Shown here piece by piece: positions 1-13,205 of a DNA stretch of 13,205 nucleotides. How positions within the stretch are numbered: the stretch's first letter is position 1; the number at the start of each line of letters is the position of its first letter. The notes below the pieces were generated by a model. That model saw nothing but the letters and a program-made list of their open reading frames with translations. It was not told the origin of the DNA and did no database searches. The DNA is from a virus (lineage: Duplodnaviria > Heunggongvirae > Uroviricota > Caudoviricetes), in the IMG/VR virus record IMGVR_UViG_2585427757_000002; one strand, given 5' to 3'. A program made the position numbers and the translations under genes.

Positions 1-551
1 CCACTGCCGGAGCCTTCATAAGCAATATCAATGGCCACGGATTCGGTCGGGTTAAACTGCACGCCAGCTCCCCACGCCAGAGACGTGTTGCTGTGGCGAC
101 CGTCATCACTTCCGGTCAGCACATCGTGCGTTTTCCCCTTGTTGTCAGTTACGCGGAGATAATCCCCGGAGAAAGTCGACACACGGCTGTAAGCCACACC
201 CGCCATCGCATACGCGCTGAACCATTCATTCACGCGCACAGACGGCCCCGCCATTACGCTGAACCAGCGGTTACGAACGGAATCTTCATGCCAGCGGGTA
301 TCGCTGTAATGGGTCAGCTGGCGATTCTTGTCTCCTGCATAGCTGAATGACGTCACCAGCCCCAGCGTATCCGTAAACTCATAACGGTATTTCACGTTAA
401 TCCCGTTCAGATCATCACTGCCGGGAACGTTGGTCCGGGCATGAAGATACCCCGCGCTCAGCGTGGACTGATGTTCAGACGCCCATGCAGGCGCACCGGA
501 TACGGCCAGACAAATGGCTGCGGACAAAATGGCGGCACAAACTTTACGCAT
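1..551 (-). CDS. lom: Outer membrane protein Lom (Ail/PagC/OmpX-family beta-barrel), prophage moron; N-terminal 183 codons, 3' end runs off the window start
   Basis: Reverse-strand ATG at 549-551 preceded by RBS GAGAGG. Translation MRKVCAAILSAAICLAVSGAPAWASEHQSTLSAGYLHARTNVPGSDDLNGINVKYRYEFTDTLGLV...AYEGSGSG has a signal peptide and matches lambda Lom as recalled. Position immediately downstream of J is as in lambda. Confidence 0.9.
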   Translation of the reverse strand, partial: MRKVCAAILSAAICLAVSGAPAWASEHQSTLSAGYLHARTNVPGSDDLNGINVKYRYEFTDTLGLVTSFSYAGDKNRQLTHYSDTRWHEDSVRNRWFSVMAGPSVRVNEWFSAYAMAGVAYSRVSTFSGDYLRVTDNKGKTHDVLTGSDDGRHSNTSLAWGAGVQFNPTESVAIDIAYEGSGS

Positions 552-573
552 AATTACCTCTCGCTTTTCTGCA

Positions 574-599
574 ATAAAAAAGGCGTCATTCCTGACGCC
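574..599 (-). terminator. Candidate intrinsic terminator between J and lom (GC stem ggcgtca/tgacgcc, loop ggaa, then TTTTTTAT on the minus strand)
   Basis: Plus strand reads aataaaaaaGGCGTCAttccTGACGCC; on the minus strand this is a 7-bp GC-rich hairpin followed by a T-run, 23 nt after the J stop and just before the lom RBS. Confidence 0.4.
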
Positions 600-621
600 A
601 TTTATTGGGGTTATAAATATT

Positions 622-3600
622 TCAACGAATACTGATGCCGGAAGCCGCTTTTTTGGTCACAATCACCGTACAGTCGGTGATATTGCCTGCCCCCTGATTG
701 CCTTTCTGGAAAATCTTAAACTCCAGAGTGACGCTACCACCACCACTAGGCATATCAATAACTGCACTGTAACTACCGGGAATGGCCCCTTTAGTTTCTC
801 TGGATGCGATTAATACGCCGTTTTTGCGAACTTCAAAACCATAACCCGTGTATCGCGTGCCTCCCGGGTTATTTCCGCTCCCCGGATCGTCATACGCTAT
901 ACCGTTAAAAATAATGGGCGGAATAATAATCTGGCGGTCAAAGTTATGATCATCGCTGATGGTGACTGTAACCGTACCGTTTGGTGTTTCCGTGTTACCC
1001 CACGTACCGACTTTTTTCGGGAAGGCTTTTGATACAGCTTTAACGAAATCTCCTCTGACCTGGGTCGCCTCCAGCATGCCCTTAATCGTACAGTTCTGGT
1101 TAATCGTGACATTGTTGAGCGTTCCTGAGTTCGCATTCACACTGCCACTGATATCCGCATTTTTAGCGGTCAGCTTTCCGTCTGATGTCAGGGAAAATAC
1201 CGGAGGACTGCCACCACTGGTAATGGTGGGGGCCGTCAGGCGCTTCAGGAACACGTCGTTCATGAATATCTGATTGCCCTGCGCCACAAACATCGGCGTT
1301 TCATTCCCGTTTGCCGGGTCAATAAATGCGATACGGTTAGCGGCAACCAGAAACTGACTCAGTTTGCCTTCCTCCGTGTCCTCCATGCTGAGGCCAATAC
1401 CCGCGACATAATGTTTGCCGTCTTTGGTCTGCTCAATTTTGACAGCCCACATGGCATTCCACTTATCGTTGGCGTCCTTCCACTCTTTCGAAAACTCCTC
1501 CAGTTTGCTGGCGTTATCTTCCGTCAGCTCAAAGTTTTCCAGCAGTTCCTTGCCGAGATGCGTTTTATTGATCAACCCTTTATAAAAATTCAGATAACCT
1601 TCCGCATCATCGCTCGCCCGACCAACGGCCTCCACAAATGCCGATTTACCAACGGTGTTCACGCTGCGGATATAAAAGTAATAATCATAACCCGGCTTAA
1701 TATTGCTACTGGCGGCTATCCAGTACAGCGCCGTACCAAGATAACGCGCGCTGGTTTCAACCTGCCTGATATCGATAATCCGCTTTTCCGAGAACCAGAA
1801 CTCAAACTGCACCGTCGGGTCATATACAGCCAGTTTCGGGACCGCTGTTATCTGAAAATACCCTGGTATCAGTTCAATAGTGACAGGCGCTGCCGGTGCC
1901 GCAATCCGGAACGATACCGATGCCGGATCGCCCTGCTGCCCCCACGCATTTACCGCCCGGACCGTCAGCGTGTAACGCCCCAGCGCCAGTTGCCTGAAGC
2001 GGTATGTGGTTTCCGTCGTCCGGGCCGTGCTGACCAGCCGCTCACTGCCGTCGTCCGCTGTTACGGTCAGACGGAGCAGGAAGCTCACGCCCTTCACCAC
2101 CTTCGGTGTGTCCCATCGCGCCAGCACCTGATATTCCCCGCTGTCTGCAGTGACTTCTGCGGCCAGGTGCTGCACCGCTGGCGGCGTGACACCATTCACC
2201 GTGCCACTCTGGTCGCCGTCAAAGTGCGCCCCGTTATCCACGATGGCTTCTTTTTCCGGTACATGCTGCACGGCGGTGATGGCATACGTGCCGTCGTCGT
2301 TCTCACGGATACTCACACAGCGGAACAGGCGCTGGCGCAACGTCGGCAACTTCAGCCCCCACACGCTGTATTCTGCAACGCCGTCAGGAACCCGGCTCAC
2401 TTTCACCTTCACGCCGTCGGTGACGGACTGGACCTGCACGCTGACCGGATTGCCACTTCCGTCAACCAGGCTTATCAGCGTGGTACCGGAGGATGGCAGA
2501 GTGATTTCACGGTCGAGCGTCAGCGTCCGGGTCTGGCTGTTTACCGCCAGCACGCGCCCGCCGATGCTGATACCGGCATAGTCATCATCGCAGATTTCAA
2601 TGACATCGCCCGGTACATGGCGAAGCCCTTCAGCACCCACGCTGAAATCCACGGTCTGCGTCTCCAGCAGTTCCGTTTTAATCAGCCACAGCCCGGCTCG
2701 GTGTGCCTGCCCCCGGCTGGTACAGCCAAAGGCATCCATCTTCGTGACATTACGACCGTAACGGGCAATGGCCTGCGTGTCCTCCACAAGCTCTGTTGCC
2801 GTTTCCCAGCCGTTATCCGGGTCAATCCAGTTCACCTCAACGGCATTATGGCGGTCCTTCAGGGCGCTGAAACTGTAGCGGAACGGCGCGCCATCATCCA
2901 GCATCACCACATTACTGCGGTTATAGGTCCACACCTTATCCGACGGCCGGTCCTGCACGAACGTCAGCGTCTGCCCGTTCCATACCGGCATACAGCGCAT
3001 CGCCGAGCAGAAATCACTGAGCACATCCCACGCCTTACGCTGTGTGGTCAGGTACGCATTACAGGTGATGCGCGGCTCCGTACCGCCAAAGCCGTCCGGC
3101 ACCGACTGGTCGCAGTACTGGCCGATGACATACAGCGCCCATTTATCCACATCTGCCGCACCAAGACGTTTCCCCATGCCGTAGCGCGGATGGGTCAGCA
3201 TATCCCACAGACACCAGGCCATGTTGTTGCTGTATGCCGGTTTAAACGTTCCGTCCCAGATACCGCTGTATTGTCGCGTCTGCGGGTTATAGTTCGACGG
3301 CACCTGCAGAATGCGCCCGCGCAGATGATAATTACGGCTCACCTGCTGGCTGCCGAACTGCTCCGAATCCACCTGCACGCCGACCAGTGCCGTGTTCGGG
3401 TAGCACTGTTTCACATCGATGATTTCGGTGTATGACGACCAGAGCGTTTTGTTCTGCAGCTGGTCTGTGGTGCTGTCCGGCGTCATCCTGCGCATCCGGA
3501 TATTAAACGGGCGCGGCGGCAGGTTACCCACCACCACCGAGGCCAGATACTGCGAGGTGGTTTTGCCTTTAATGGTGATGTCTTTTTCCGTCACCCAGCC

Positions 3601-4035
3601 ACCGTTACGCTGTATCTGAACCAGCAGGCGGACTTCCGATGGATTCCTGTCCCCCTTTGAGGTGGTTTCCACCAGTGCCTGCACACCGAAGGTAAAACGC
3701 AGACGGTCGATGTTTGCCGACGTGATGGTCCGGGTGATCGGCGTATCATATTTCACTTCCGTACCCAGCACCGTCTCGGAGCCGGAGGATTCAAACCCCT
3801 CCGGCGGTGACTGCTCCTGCTCACCGGCCCGGAACACCACCGTGACGCCGGATATATTGGTATTCCCCTCACTGTCCAGCACCGGCGTACTGTTCAGCAG
3901 CACGCTTTTTAATCCATCCACCGGACCTTCAACCGGCCCTTCGCTGATGGCATCGATCACACTCAGCAACTGCGTGGACTTCAGGTTGTCCTTCGCTTCG
4001 CGCGGGGTATGCCCCTTACTGCTGCCTTTACCCAT
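622..4035 (-). CDS. J: Tail tip attachment / host specificity protein J (central tail fiber), 1137 aa, with a C-terminal receptor-binding region that differs from lambda J
   Basis: 1137-aa ORF starting [34 protein letters not shown], near-identical to lambda J (1132 aa) over most of its length as recalled. RBS GGAGCGTGAGG upstream of the ATG at 4035. Lies between I and lom as in lambda. Confidence 0.95.
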
Positions 4036-4095
4036 TCCTCACGCTCCATAAACGACAAAACCGCCCGCAGGCGGTTTCACATAAAATATTTTGCA

Positions 4096-4767
4096 TCATC
4101 GACCAATCACCACAACCTGACCACCATCCCCTTCGTCTGCCGTGCTGATCTCCTGAGAAATCACGCGTGACCCCACGCGCATTTCACCGTACAGAACGGG
4201 CAGAACATTGCCCTGGGCAACCATGTTATCCAGTGAGGAGAAATACGTGTTCTGCTTACCGTTATCCGTTGTCTGTGTACGGGGAGTTCTGGCTTTCGGT
4301 GCCAGCATCTGCGCCACACCACCGAGCACCATACTGGCACCGAGAGAAAACAGGATGCCGGTCATACCACCGGCCCCAATGGCTGCCCCCCATGCTGCAA
4401 GGGTGGCTCCGGCGGTAAAGAATGATCCGGCAATGGCGGCTGCTCCCAGGACAATCTGGAATACACCACCTGACTTGGCCCCGGCGACTCTGGGAACAAT
4501 ATGAATCACAGCGCCATCAGGCAGAGTCTCATGTAACTGCGCCGTTAATCTGGACGTGCTGACGTCCCGCCCGGCAATCCGTACCTGATACCAGCCGTCG
4601 CTCAGTTTCTGACGAAACGCCGGGAGCTGTGTGGCCAGCGCCCGGATGGCTTCAGCCCCCGTTTTCACACGAAGGTCGATGCGGCGGCCAAATCGTTGTA
4701 AATCCCCGTAAAGGCAGATGCGCGCCATGCCCGGTGACGCCAGAGGGAGTGTGTGCGTCGCTGCCAT
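4096..4767 (-). CDS. I: Tail tip assembly protein I (223 aa)
   Basis: 223-aa ORF MAATHTLPLASPGMARICLYGDLQRFGRRIDLRVKTG... with a C-terminal Gly/Ala-rich hydrophobic segment; same length as lambda I. Overlaps the 3' end of K as in lambda. RBS GAGAGAGG. Confidence 0.93.
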   Translation of the reverse strand: MAATHTLPLASPGMARICLYGDLQRFGRRIDLRVKTGAEAIRALATQLPAFRQKLSDGWYQVRIAGRDVSTSRLTAQLHETLPDGAVIHIVPRVAGAKSGGVFQIVLGAAAIAGSFFTAGATLAAWGAAIGAGGMTGILFSLGASMVLGGVAQMLAPKARTPRTQTTDNGKQNTYFSSLDNMVAQGNVLPVLYGEMRVGSRVISQEISTADEGDGGQVVVIGR

Positions 4768-5408
4768 TTGTCGGTATACCTCTCTCGTTTGCTCAGTTGT
4801 TCAGGAATATGGTGCAGCAGCTCGCCGTCACCACAGTAAATGGCGGCATGATTCGGCACCGATGAACCAAAACAGCACAGCAGCACATCGCCCGGTTGTG
4901 CTGATGACAACGGCACCTGATACAGCCCTGTGTCCTCCAGATTATCCAGATAGAGATTCTGACCGTGACGCCACCAGTCATCCTCGCGATGAAAATCCGG
5001 CATCTCAATCCCCGCCAGATGATAAGCATCCCGGAACAGCGTGTAACAGTCCGTCACCCCGTGCTCAAAGCGCCGCCCGGTGAGATGCGGCACACAGCGG
5101 AACTTATGAATCGTCCCCCGGCAGACCAGCCACCACGGCAAATCACTCTGCACCTGCAGCCGCCGGTCGGCCTCACTCAGCCAGGGCAGACCACCGGGGT
5201 GGCTGTGGACCAGCGCCACAATCTCACCCTGCATTTCTGCCTGCAGCCAGTCCTCCGGAGCCATCCGGAAATAATCCTCCGGCTCACCGGAAATATTCAC
5301 GCAGGGAAAATATCTTTCCCCCTCCGGCGCTCTCACCACGAAGCCGCACGACTCCGCTGGCGCACATCGCCGGGCGTGCGCCAGAATCGCTGATTCTGTC
5401 TGTGTCAT
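4665..5408 (-). CDS. K: Tail tip assembly protein K (MPN/JAB-like N-terminal domain plus NlpC/P60-like C-terminal domain), 247 aa from the MTQTES start
   Basis: ORF contains MTQTESAILAHARRCAPAESCGFVV...HSHPGG (JAB/MPN-like motif) and a C-terminal Cys/His hydrolase-like region. Start chosen at the internal ATG (5406-5408) that corresponds to the lambda K N-terminus; the upstream ATG at 5483 would overlap L extensively. Confidence 0.88.
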   Translation of the reverse strand: MTQTESAILAHARRCAPAESCGFVVRAPEGERYFPCVNISGEPEDYFRMAPEDWLQAEMQGEIVALVHSHPGGLPWLSEADRRLQVQSDLPWWLVCRGTIHKFRCVPHLTGRRFEHGVTDCYTLFRDAYHLAGIEMPDFHREDDWWRHGQNLYLDNLEDTGLYQVPLSSAQPGDVLLCCFGSSVPNHAAIYCGDGELLHHIPEQLSKRERYTDKWQRRTHSLWRHRAWRASAFTGIYNDLAAASTFV

Positions 5409-5412
5409 GGGA

Positions 5413-6111
5413 TTACTGCGAAAGTTTGTTAATGGAAAGGAAGCCGCCAAAGTTGCCGACGTTATTGCGGAACTTACAGCCACTCAGGCATTTGCTGCAT
5501 TTATCCTTCGTGATATCGGACGTCGGCTGGTCATATTCATCCGCGACAGCCGGACCGCTATAACCGCACTCGTCACCGCGATAGGTCCAGGTGCAGGTGT
5601 TGGCCAGCATGATACGTCCCGGAAAAACAGCGCCATCCGTTTCCGTCGGCGTGGACAGTACAAAGGAGGCACTCACCGCGCTCAGTTCGCTGCACTGCTC
5701 AATGCGCCAGCGGCTGATCACCTCCTGCTCCGGATCGGCGTAACTGTTTCCGTTGACGAAGTTCACCGCATCCAGAAAACGGGCATAAACCTTACGCCGG
5801 ACCACCGTTCCGCCGACCAGACTCTGCATATCTTCCGCCATCCCGGTGACCATACCGTACAGGTTAGAAACCGTCAGCGTGGGGCGCGTACTGGTGCCTT
5901 TGCCATTCAGTTCAAAACCACTCCCCTGAATGGGATACGGCTGATACTGTCGCCCCTGCCAGGTGACCGGCTCACCTTTTTCGTTCTGCTCATTACAGAA
6001 AAAATAACGTTCTCCACCGACCTCTGTCAGGTCGATTTCCCAGAGCACCACGCTGGCCGACTGCTCCGCACGGGTGCATTCATTCAGTGTTTCCTGCCGG
6101 ATATCCTGCAT
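5413..6111 (-). CDS. L: Tail tip protein L (232 aa)
   Basis: 232-aa ORF MQDIRQETLNECTRAEQSASVVLWEIDLTEVGGERYFFCNEQNEKGEPVTWQGRQYQPYPIQGSGFELNGKG... with a C-terminal Cys cluster (CSKCLSGCKF), matching lambda L in length and sequence as recalled. Confidence 0.93.
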   Translation of the reverse strand: MQDIRQETLNECTRAEQSASVVLWEIDLTEVGGERYFFCNEQNEKGEPVTWQGRQYQPYPIQGSGFELNGKGTSTRPTLTVSNLYGMVTGMAEDMQSLVGGTVVRRKVYARFLDAVNFVNGNSYADPEQEVISRWRIEQCSELSAVSASFVLSTPTETDGAVFPGRIMLANTCTWTYRGDECGYSGPAVADEYDQPTSDITKDKCSKCLSGCKFRNNVGNFGGFLSINKLSQ

Positions 6112-6440
6112 CAGTTCACCACCTGTTCAAACTCTGCGCTGAACTCAACACGCAGCATACTGACCCGCGACGACCATTTTGCGCAGGTCACCTTTATCTG
6201 CCGCCACTCATAAGGCGGCGTCCACAGAAAGGCTTTCCAGCCCCCGTGCTCTTCCAGAAACGACTCCAGCGCCGTGGCCTCCCAACGGGGGACAGAAAGC
6301 GTCACGCTGTACGTTTTCAGGTTGGCATTCAGCCCGGCAGGCGCTCGCTGGGAATAGCCATCACCAAAGCGCACCTTTCTTACAGAAGGGGCCGAAGCCA
6401 CATCCATACCGGGTTTCACTTTCCAGCGGAAGGTTTTCAT
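6111..6440 (-). CDS. M: Tail tip protein M (109 aa)
   Basis: 109-aa ORF MKTFRWKVKPGMDVASAPSVRKVRFGDGYSQRAPAGLNANLKTYSVTLSVPRWEATALESFLEEHGGWKAFLWTPPYEW...; same length as lambda M. Start overlaps the H stop by 4 nt (ATGA) and the stop overlaps the L start. Confidence 0.93.
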   Translation of the reverse strand: MKTFRWKVKPGMDVASAPSVRKVRFGDGYSQRAPAGLNANLKTYSVTLSVPRWEATALESFLEEHGGWKAFLWTPPYEWRQIKVTCAKWSSRVSMLRVEFSAEFEQVVN

Positions 6441-9035
6441 CGTCCACCTCCGGAGAACAGACCACCATCGCGCATCTGTGCCTGGATTTCATCACGGGCA
6501 CCCTTGCGGGCCATGTCATACACCGCCTTCAGCGCCTGTGGCCCTATCTGACCATTCGTACCGTCGTTCTGAATCACCACATGGTTATTCTGCTCAAACG
6601 TCCCGGACGCCTGCGACCGGCTGTCAGCCAGACTGCCCGGTGTACCGACATAACCACCGGTGGCATAGCCGCGCATCAGCCGGTAGAGATTCCCCACGCC
6701 AATCCGGCTGGTTGCCTCCTTCGTGAAGACAAATTCACCACGGTGAACAATCCCCGCTGGCTCATATTTGCCGCCGGTTCCCGTAAATCCTCCGGTTGCA
6801 AAATGGAATTTCGCCGCAGCTGCCTGAATGGCTGTACCGCCTGACGCGGATGCGCCGCCACCAACAGCCCCGCCAATAGCGCTGCCGATACTCCCGACAA
6901 TCCCCACCATTGCCTGCTTAAGCAGAATTTCTGTCATCATGGACAGCACGGAACGGGTGAAGCTGCGCCAGTTCTGCTCACTGCCGGTCAGCATCGCCGC
7001 CATATTCTGTGCAATACCATCAAAGGTCTGCGTGGCTGCACTTTTAACCTGCGACATACTGTCCGTGGCGCTCTCTTCCCACTCACTCCAGCCGGACTTC
7101 AGGTCTGCCATCCAGCTCCCGCGAAGCTGGTCTTCAGCCGCCCAGGTCTTTTTCTGCTCTGACATGACGTTATTCAGCGCCAGCGGATTATCGCCATACT
7201 CCTCCTTCAGACGCTGTTCCGTGGCTTCCCGCGCTGCCTGCCGGTCAGTCAGCCCCCGGCTTTTCGCATCAATGGCGGCCCGTTTTGCCCGTTGCTGCTG
7301 TGCGAATTTATCCGCCTGCTGCGCCAGTTCGTTCAGCCGTTTCTGGTGTTCAACCTTATCGCCAAGTTCAGCCAGCTGACGTTTGTACTCCAGCGTCTCT
7401 TTTTCATGAGCAAGAAGAGATTTTTCCTCGATACTTAGCGATTTCTTCTGGCCATCCAGAACGTCAGCAGACAACTTCTCATGCAACACGGCATACTGAC
7501 TTTCGGCCTTCCACAAATCCCGGCGCTGCTGGCTGATTTTCTCATTCGCTCCGGCATGCTTCTCCAGCGTCCGGAGTTCTGCCTGAAGCGTCAGCAGGGC
7601 AGCATGAGCACTGTCTTCCTGACGATCGCCCGCAGACACCTTCACGCCGGACTGTTTCGGCTTTTTCAGCGTCGCTTCATAATCCTTTTTCGCCGCCGCC
7701 ATCAGCGTGTTGTAATCCGCCTGCAGGATTTTCCCGTCTTTCAGTGCCTTGTTCAGTTCTTCCTGACGGGCGGTATATTTCTCCAGCGGTGTCTGCAGCC
7801 GTTCGTAAGCCTTCTGCGCCTCTTCGGTATATTTCAGCCGTGATGCCTCAGATTCGGCCCAGTCCTTTGCTGCCATCTCTCTGGCCTTTTCAAGATCGGC
7901 CTGCAACATGGCGACTGAAAGCCCAAGTTGCGCATTCGCTCTGTCTTCCCAGTCCACGGAGATTGGCAAGAAATGCTGAGGTTTTACCGCGCCGGTGGCT
8001 CCGGCTCTCATACCACTGCCATTTCTTGTCCGCTTCATCAAAAGCCTTTTCAGCTTTGGCGAGCATATCAGCAGAGGAGTCCGGGCGACCAATATCCAGC
8101 ACCGCATCCCACATGGATTTGAATGCCCGCGCAGTCCTGTCTGCCCAGGTCTCCAGCGTGCCCATGTTCTCTTTCAGGCGGCGGGTCTGGTCATCAAACC
8201 CCTTCGTCGCGGCCTCGTTCGCCGCCTGCAATGCCCCGGCTTCATCGCCGGAACGCTGCAACTGAGCAACATACGCAATCTGCTCCGCCGTCACGTTATG
8301 GAACTGGCGTGCCATCGCTGTCAGCCCCGACGTCGGGTCTGTGGTCAGCTTCCCGAAGGCTTCAGCGACCTTGTCCACCTCCACACCGGATGCAGAGGAG
8401 AAACGCGCCACACTCTGGCTGATGGACGCAATCTGAGCCTCACCGCTTACTCCCGCCTTAACCAGTGCGCTGAGTGACTCGCTGGTCTGGTTAAACGTCA
8501 GCCCTGCCGCCTGCCCGGCTCTGGACAGGACCAGCATGCGATCTGCCGTCAGACCCGACTGATTGCCGGAAAGGACCAGCGTTTTGTTGAAATCGGACAG
8601 GGTTGAGTCCCCCTGATACCAGGCATACGCCAGCGCACCGGTCGCCACCGCCAGCGAGGTGGCCCCCACCATCGGCAGGGTGATCGCACCGGCAAGCCCC
8701 CTGAACATGGGGATCATCCCGCCGAAGGAGTCCTTCACCTGACCACCCTGTTGCAGCAGGATCAGCCACGGACTTTGCCCGCCTGCAAGCTGCGTGGCCA
8801 CGTCGGTGAACTGTGCAGGCAGCATACGCATGGCAGCTTTATACTGCCCGACGGAAATCCCCGCTTTCTGTGCAGCCAGTGCCTGTCGGCTCAGCGACTG
8901 TTCAACGACTGCCGCTGTTTTTTTCGCATCACTTTCCGTACCGGAAAAATGACGCCTGACTCTGGCCATCTGCTCGTCAAATCTGGCCGCATCCAGACTT
9001 AAATCAACGACCAGATCGCCTACCGGTTCAGCCAT
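6437..9035 (-). pseudogene. H: Tail length tape measure protein H, interrupted by an apparent +1 frameshift (N-terminal frame 7890..9035, C-terminal frame 6437..~8010)
   Basis: Two overlapping minus-strand ORFs (381 aa and 556 aa) together span ~866 codons, matching lambda H (853 aa). The N-terminal part begins MAEPVGDLVVDLSLDAARFDEQMARV; the C-terminal part ends ...MRDGGLFSGGGR with the Gly-rich hydrophobic tail of lambda H. The frame changes between the KKWQWY codons (~8010-8021) and the SVDWEDR codons (~7945-7960). RBS AGGAGGAG before the ATG at 9035. Confidence 0.85.
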
Positions 9036-9866
9036 ACCGGACTCCTCCTGCGATCCCTTCTGATACTGTCATCAGCATTACGTCATCCTCCGTCATGTCC
9101 GCCACATCCGGGGACGTAGGGATAACTTCATTCCCGTCCGGGCCAAAGCGGACACCTCCGGCAAGCCCTGCCGCTTTCTGCATCAGCACATCATCTTCAG
9201 GCTCTTCGTCAGCCTCGCGCCGGTTCAGCAGACTGAAATCCAGCGGATGCATATCCGGATCGCTGAAAAACAGGCTGAGCACGGTGTACGTCAGCCCGGA
9301 AAAGTGCATATCCAGCAGAACATCATGAAAATAATGGGTACTGTAAAAGCGGTGCCAGTCGGCATACTCCGTGGATGACATCCCGGCAAGCATGGCGCGC
9401 CAGTCGGGTCGCCCCATCTCACGCGCCAGTTTCAGGGCAAAACTCAGCTCACCGTCGAACACTTTCCCGCAGAAACAGGCTCTGCTGGCCCGGCGTCATC
9501 TGCCTGTTCAGGTGCATCATTCACAACAAACTCAGACATACCGGACAGACGCATTACCACATTTTCAGCCTGAGCAATTGCCTCTGTGGGCCAGGTGGTA
9601 AGCACTTCCTGCTCAATCTGTTTAACGGCTTCATTCATGGACGGCATCTTTGTCTTCTGCGGATGGCTATGCCACAGGGACATCGCCACCAGAAAAGCAC
9701 CGGTTCTGACGAGATCTTCCACGCTCACCTGTCGATTGAGACTGGCTCCCGCCTGTTCTGCCTGTCGTTTCAGCAGGGCGAGATGCTCAATTCGCTGCAG
9801 GGCTGACAGTTCAGAAAGCGTGACGCTCACACCGTTATATTCAAATGATTCGGTTTTCAGGAACAT
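9028..9866 (-). CDS. T: Tail assembly chaperone G-T fusion, made by programmed -1 ribosomal frameshift from G into the T frame
   Basis: The T-frame ORF (9028..9462) translates to MFDGELSFALKLAREMGRPDWRAMLAGMSSTEYADWH..., matching lambda T. It overlaps the 3' end of G and is entered through the slippery heptamer G GGA AAG at 9462-9468. Confidence 0.85.
9444..9866 (-). CDS. G: Tail assembly chaperone G (140 aa)
   Basis: 140-aa ORF MFLKTESFEYNGVSVTLSELSALQRIEHLALLKRQAEQ...AGPAEPVSAGKCSTVS, same length as lambda G and near-identical as recalled. RBS GGAGAG. Confidence 0.93.
   Translation of the reverse strand: MFLKTESFEYNGVSVTLSELSALQRIEHLALLKRQAEQAGASLNRQVSVEDLVRTGAFLVAMSLWHSHPQKTKMPSMNEAVKQIEQEVLTTWPTEAIAQAENVVMRLSGMSEFVVNDAPEQADDAGPAEPVSAGKCSTVS
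9462..9468 (-). promoter_or_regulatory. Programmed -1 ribosomal frameshift slippery heptamer GGGAAAG (G GGA AAG in the G frame)
   Basis: Plus strand ctttccc is GGGAAAG on the minus strand, lying in the G frame as gcg-GGA-AAG 6 codons before the G stop. Shifting -1 here enters the T ORF. Same heptamer and position as the known lambda G-T frameshift site. Confidence 0.85.
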
Positions 9867-9881
9867 CGCTGACTCTCCGGA

Positions 9882-10622
9882 TTAACTGGCGGTGACGGTG
9901 ATTTCTGCAACCACAGCAAGTTCACCATTACCGGATACAACCGGAATGTTGACCTTGCCTGCAGCAACGCCGTTCACGGTGATGGTCATACCACTGACCG
10001 ACACGGTGGCTTTTGTTTTATCCGCAGACACCGCACGAAAGCTCTTGTCGGTTACGCCCTCCGGCTGGAATGCCACGGTCAGCGTGGTGCTCTGCCCTTT
10101 CACCACCGAGGTGCTGGCAGGCGTCACGGTCATACCGGTTGCCGCTGTTACCGTGCTGCGATCTTCTGCCATCGACGGACGTCCCACGTTGGTGACTTTC
10201 ACCGTGCGGGTGATCACTTCCTTCGCCGTCACCGCCTTACCGATACTGCTGACCCAGCCACGGAACACATCGACCGTGCCGTTCGGGAAGCGGATTTTAT
10301 AGGCACGGGTATCGCCTTCATTAAACCACGCCAGCAGCGCCTGCTGCCCCTGCTCTCCGGGCATCCACGCCAGCGTGAAGCTGGTATCTCCGGCAGATTT
10401 CTGCCCCTGCCCGGTCGCAGTCCAGTCTGCATCTTCATCATCGAGATAGCTGTCGTCATAGGACTCAGCGGTCAGTTCGCCGGGCGTCAGGTCTTTAACT
10501 TTTGCCAGACGCGACCAGTCAACGTCTGAAAGCGGATTCGCATAAGGGTCACCGCTCCCCTTATAAACCCACAGGGTGGTCCCGGCACCTTTCACCGGCA
10601 TTACAGGATTTGGTACAGGCAT
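9882..10622 (-). CDS. V: Major tail tube protein V (246 aa) with C-terminal Ig-like (Big_2-type) domain
   Basis: Sequence [42 protein letters not shown]...ITVTAS matches lambda V as recalled. Start set at the ATG at 10620-10622, preceded by RBS GAGGA; the upstream ATG at 10652 would overlap U and lacks an RBS. Confidence 0.92.
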
Positions 10623-12413: not shown

Positions 12414-12937
<524 letters not shown>

Positions 12938-12938
12938 G

Positions 12939-13205
<267 letters not shown>

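Follow-up and report, generated by a model that had tools for sequence, protein, structure and literature searches.

A two-nucleotide loss divides the tape measure gene H of a decaying lambda-like prophage in one Escherichia coli draft assembly

Introduction

When a gene that is one open reading frame in its relatives is found as two overlapping frames, is the split a working arrangement, a mutation, or a fault of the assembled sequence? The question is raised by gene H of a lambda-like prophage that lies on a stretch of 13,205 nucleotides of Escherichia coli DNA, the whole of which was analysed and is here called the window. The product of H, gpH, is one continuous ruler whose length sets the length of the tail, and initiation of the tail on the tip complex requires its C-terminal region. 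On this basis, a truncated copy of gpH alone would not be expected to make tails.

An earlier note on the window had described two overlapping minus-strand reading frames for H, at 7890..9035 and 6437..8107, and both exist exactly so. It placed the change of frame within 7945..8021, and alignment with intact H genes now locates it at 7951-7953, at the 3' end of that interval. As set out below, the split is a private lesion of this one contig, and the reading favoured here, at a probability of roughly 0.55, is that of a real, recent and strain-specific two-nucleotide frameshift in H.

The contig and the prophage it carries

The window is the entire draft contig JOQW01000061.1 (13,205 bp; assembly GCA_000714295.1), assigned in GenBank to E. 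coli 5-366-08_S3_C2. This isolate belongs to ST5285, phylogroup B1 and O163:H19 (Table S1 of Richter et al. 2018, PMC6222053). Its genome of 5.40 Mb in 174 contigs, from a Tanzanian infant source, was sequenced as 100-bp reads on the Illumina HiSeq 2000 and assembled with MaSuRCA 2.3.2 (PMC6222053). The late genes of a lambda-like prophage occupy its minus strand, from a 3' fragment of E through FI, FII, Z, U, V, G, T, H, M, L, K, I and J to the start of lom. Repeats bound the contig on both sides, IS621 on one and lom on the other. The remaining 12 complete genes have lengths equal to those of their intact homologues, and thus there is no general indel noise on the contig. Consensus indel errors are rare in Illumina data, and are mostly not of the type of the lesion found in H.

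Among the intact genes are the tail assembly chaperone gene G (9444..9866, minus strand) and its frameshift extension T (9028..9462, minus strand; PF06223). The canonical slippery heptamer of the lambda G/GT -1 frameshift, GGGAAAG, is intact near the end of G, at 9462..9468 of the minus strand, and marks the real programmed frameshift of the tail module. Genes Z, G and FI of the contig are very common, each occurring in 356-6,114 blocks of the collection that was searched. The major tail protein V (246 aa; 9882-10622, minus strand) has no exact match in a collection of 15 billion proteins, the isolate of the same sequence type included; either V is a rare allele, or the consensus is mixed in the upstream half of the contig.

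That other isolate, 3-267-03_S4_C2, is likewise ST5285 and O163:H19, and was sampled about 11 weeks later from another child (subject 3-267-03). Its corresponding contig, JNMR01000084.1, matches positions 1..6225 of the window with one mismatch, has the same lom end, and breaks inside M at 6225. Assemblers therefore had trouble just where H begins, which marks this as a region that is hard to assemble.

At the opposite end of the contig the major capsid gene E is represented by a 3' fragment (12414..12882, minus strand; PF03864), homology to intact E stopping at 12882. The sequence from 12883 to 13205 is the end of IS621, an element of the IS110 family inserted in E with its junction at 12882/12883; the contig ends inside the element, as is expected for a short-read assembly. 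The identical junction recurs in 11 complete E. coli genomes whose hosts and countries of origin vary. In strain MB06102 it is seen with the whole 1,279-bp IS621 and the 2-nt CT core repeated at both ends, where the intact target in E reads ...ATCGAAGC-CT-ACGCGCTG.... The shared junction could be one inherited insertion, or could result from repeated site-specific insertion into the same target. E has been destroyed independently of H and the prophage was already defective, and thus the earlier suggestion of a decaying prophage with a disrupted E was sound. E. coli commonly harbours defective lambdoid prophages like this one, another decayed example with a truncated H being locus L124. At a further locus (L126, 8417-9447; GCA_037029985.1), E is split into ORFs of 190 aa and 148 aa with no insertion sequence present. 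A scar left by excision of IS621 was considered for that split and rejected, because the insertion-site sequence there is wild type and the break lies elsewhere.

Gene H and its two reading frames

Homology, synteny and Pfam domains identify the locus at 6437..9035 (minus strand; 2,599 nt) as the lambda-like tape measure gene H, disrupted as assembled, in agreement with the earlier assignment of a lambda-type gene whose downstream part is in the +1 frame. The 2,599 nt align with annotated lambda-type tape measure genes at 100% coverage and 92-94% identity, and DNA identity is 92-97% with the H genes annotated in lambdoid phages and prophages. H lies between T and M, as in the tail gene order of lambda and in six annotated relatives. 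Both expected domains are detected: TMP_2 (PF06791; E = 2.9e-70) at residues 54-256 of the 381-aa upstream ORF, and Tape_meas_lam_C (PF09718; E = 7.1e-20) in a 479-aa downstream ORF, corresponding to residues 640-714 of the repaired protein. Thousands of E. coli genomes also have chromosomal prophage copies with which the region aligns, segments homologous to H being found at a median of 2 and a maximum of 7 places per genome.

The 5' ORF (7890..9035, minus strand; KEL77251.1 in GenBank) has 381 codons, of which the first 361 are authentic, ending at G361 (...SAFLANLRG), and the last 20 are out of frame (LGRQSECATWAFSRHVAGRS), after which translation meets TGA at 7892..7890. The authentic 3' part, as judged by homology, runs from W363 (WEDRANAQ...) to the natural stop at 6437..7950 of the minus strand, lies in the +1 frame with respect to the 5' part, and is open throughout. 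The longer ORF in this frame, 6437..8107, encodes 556 aa and overlaps the 381-aa ORF by 218 nt, but its 7951..8107 segment is not authentic in that frame; GenBank annotates the 3' half as a 479-aa CDS from the ATG at 7876 (KEL77250.1). The two frames proposed earlier are thus real, with their limits redrawn: the N-terminal frame is authentic as far as ...SAFLANLRG and not merely to ...WQWY, and the C-terminal frame starts at WEDRANAQ, the preceding SVD not being part of the protein.

From the lesion onward the +1 frame stays open over 504 codons, with no second disabling change, so the event in H is either very recent or not real. As assembled, H is not a single continuous ORF of about 850-870 codons: it consists of two ORFs in different frames that become one only after a 2-nt repair, which makes the locus, as assembled, a disrupted copy and a pseudogene.

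Intact H alleles are single ORFs of 853, 859 or 866 codons, all of which coexist among E. coli prophages. The nearest allele of the same architecture, that of strain E300082, has 2,601 nt, as do intact alleles of the same length, against 2,599 nt here. The allele in the window is a mosaic not seen elsewhere, its nearest relative being 96.8% identical. Differences from the E300082 allele fall mostly in two mosaic patches, at H nucleotides ~1400-1500 and ~2300-2500; outside these there is about 1 difference per 100 nt. Codon differences number 35 synonymous and 30 non-synonymous. There is no allele switch at the lesion, and on either flank of it the window hardly differs from the E300082 allele.

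The lesion to the base

Alignment with intact H genes resolves the lesion (7951..7953, minus strand) as a net loss of two nucleotides, a G and an A that flank a C, where relatives read GTGGAGCATGGGA and the window reads GTGGACTGGGA. Intact genes have GGA-G-C-A-TGG and the window has GGA-C-TGG, so that the G is missing between A7953 and C7952 and the A between C7952 and T7951; global alignments put the loss at H nucleotides 1083-1084. In a multiple alignment the four intact genes read CCG(T/G)GGAGCATGGGA(A/G)GAC and the window reads CCGTGGACTGGGAAGAC, and this is the sole frame-changing difference; the other alignment gaps with respect to the references lie within the divergent mosaic patches and cancel out in frame. 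Putting the two nucleotides back in silico gives one ORF of 866 codons, whose product is identical to H of E. coli E300082 at 836 of 866 positions without gaps; the repaired 866-aa protein itself has no record in the 15-billion-protein collection.

The earlier note had looked to homopolymers for the cause, naming the runs ggtaaaacc and ccggagccaccggcgcgg. A slip at either is rejected, because both are invariant with respect to four intact homologues and the two lost bases flank a C. Neither the G nor the A belonged to a homopolymer, each being a single base in GAGCAT, and the only run of at least 4 bases within ~40 nt of the lesion is an unchanged AAAA 27 nt upstream.

The lesion also converts the GGAGCATGGG of intact genes to GGACTGGG at 7948-7955 of the minus strand, and a second copy of GGACTGGG, identical over 8 nt to the lesion site, lies 90 nt downstream at 7858..7865 on the same strand. 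The window has no third copy on either strand, and only 4.4% of mock lesions of the same form placed along H give as good a nearby match. The match is suggestive, though not conclusive, and mildly favours a templated mutation in vivo, in which GAGCAT would have become GACT by copying from the imperfect direct repeat 90 nt downstream, as in natural repeat-templated frameshift mutagenesis; that specific route is nonetheless regarded as unlikely. A chimeric join through the repeat was also considered as the source of the lesion and rejected, because it would remove the intervening 90 nt, yet these remain.

Is the split H a conserved arrangement?

Whether close homologues share the two-ORF arrangement bears directly on whether it could be an expressed feature, and no other sequence was found to have it. 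In an index of 153 billion gene positions, neither the 381-aa nor the 479-aa product has an exact copy on any other contig. A megablast search of 5,426 complete E. coli genomes with a 62-nt query centred on the lesion gave 21 matching records, none of them 100% identical. In the 15 of these 21 that were listed, 62-64 nt of subject align with 61-62 nt of query, which is the undeleted form, and the deleted form is present in 0 of the 5,426 genomes. When the two known flanking SNPs are permitted, the motif in its deleted form has no match among JGI metagenome contigs and none in IMG/VR, where the intact motif, serving as a positive control, is present in 96 contigs. A gapped pattern that allows a spacer of 6-30 nt finds 94 contigs, every one with a span of 44 nt. 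Across all related loci that were fetched the spacer is 16 nt in 99 of 99 and 14 nt, the length in the window, in none. A natural length allele at the site is rejected on these data, as all 99 loci share the 16-nt spacer and only two flanking SNP positions vary. Among GTDB species representatives the exact 39-nt motif has no match, and a degenerate 21-mer has three, in unrelated archaeal and Burkholderiales MAGs, evidently by chance.

Thus the H split is not a conserved recoding site, the deleted form being found in no relative. In favour of a functional reading of the split, both halves retain intact domains, the downstream frame is fully open, and a genuine programmed frameshift acts just upstream at G/T. 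A programmed +1 ribosomal frameshift might join the halves, or two polypeptides might be made from them. Against this stand not only the 0 occurrences in 5,426 complete E. coli genomes and in viral and metagenome contigs, beside 96 intact viral contigs, but also the makeup of the overlap. No X_XXY_YYZ heptamer occurs in the 218-nt overlap of the ORFs, inspection of it reveals no +1 site like that of prfB (for example CUU UGA preceded by a Shine-Dalgarno sequence), and the ATG at 7876 is preceded, again by inspection, by only a weak and badly spaced Shine-Dalgarno-like sequence. The functional reading is accordingly given very little credence, and on the sequence evidence a programmed or otherwise maintained split is effectively excluded. 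Equally improbable is a variant in which the lesion is real and the tail module still works, be it through low-level +1 slippage over GGA-C-UGG, or through a 361-residue piece and a re-initiated C-terminal piece that would form a two-part tape measure.

Mutation or assembly error?

What has to be weighed, then, is a broken gene against a misassembled one. In the reading that we prefer (probability about 0.55), a recent strain-specific mutation in E. coli 5-366-08_S3_C2 would have removed two bases (GAGCAT to GACT) at H codons 362-363. Translation from the H start would yield 361 authentic residues and 20 wrong ones before a stop, and the predicted product would retain TMP_2 and be without the C-terminal 504 residues, including Tape_meas_lam_C. 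With the capsid gene lost earlier to IS621, H would already have been under no selection, and the lesion would be a case of ordinary pseudogene formation in a decaying prophage. The lesion in the assembled sequence, its position and uniqueness, the restored ORF and the IS621 insertion are shown directly; that the lesion is present in the DNA of the strain and abolishes the function of H is what we infer. Evidence for a real lesion includes its position at a site that is not a homopolymer, on the Illumina HiSeq platform where indel errors are rare, in a contig that is otherwise clean; the flanks match the E300082 allele, and other decayed prophages with a truncated H exist, as at L124. Against it are the occurrence of the lesion in one draft assembly only, in a region that is repeated in E. 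coli genomes, and its form, two 1-nt losses one base apart being an unusual spontaneous mutation.

The first of these objections carries over into the rival reading, to which we give somewhat less than even odds, namely that H of the strain is intact and that the MaSuRCA/Celera consensus introduced the 2-nt loss within a repeated prophage region. That the exact 381-aa and 479-aa products are confined to this contig is what such an error would leave behind, and the setting is one in which it could arise: a 13.2-kb draft contig bounded by the repeats IS621 and lom, in a species whose genomes have homologous H segments in 2 places at the median and in as many as 7. The ST5285 isolate from another child was assembled over window 1..6225 only, with 1 mismatch. 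The unique V protein would also fit a chimeric consensus. The details of the site are harder to reconcile with an error, as it is not a homopolymer, shows no allele switch, and has no counterpart in frame-breaking indels elsewhere on the contig. Moreover, all 99 related alleles have the deleted bases unchanged, so that a blend of two paralogous copies would leave no gap there.

Consequences of either outcome

If the lesion is real, this prophage copy would be unable to measure or build its own tail, and its tail module would be dead, able only to serve as material for recombination or to be complemented by co-resident lambdoid prophages. Defective prophages are known as gene reservoirs for recombination with active phages (PMC3945230). 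If the lesion is an artefact, the GenBank entries KEL77251.1 and KEL77250.1 represent a single gene in two parts and ought to be merged. Beyond annotation the significance is small, and the lesson is a practical one: a frame break seen on a single draft contig, within a prophage region that is repeated, calls for a check of the reads before a biological reading.

Comparison with known systems

The locus corresponds to gpH of lambda in all but its reading frame. Gene and position are the same, between T and M in the order Z-U-V-G-T-H-M-L-K-I-J, and both Pfam domains are present here too, but the frame is broken after codon 361 by the 2-nt loss, whereas intact alleles are single ORFs. The G/GT -1 frameshift of lambda, a few hundred bases upstream of the H split, likewise involves two overlapping ORFs of the tail module in different frames. 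The likeness ends there, because G/GT has a conserved GGGAAAG in all relatives, whereas the H split is not conserved, has no slippery motif, and could be bridged only by a +1 shift. A further parallel is with the cryptic lambdoid prophages of E. coli that have insertion sequences and frameshifts in morphogenesis genes. The present prophage combines an insertion sequence in its capsid gene and a point lesion in a tail gene with intact neighbours, and a genome of the type studied here usually carries several lambdoid prophages. From the known cryptic prophages the present one shows no difference of kind, its lesion being private to one assembly, and the split H is a matter of ordinary prophage decay or of assembly error, in either case nothing new in kind.
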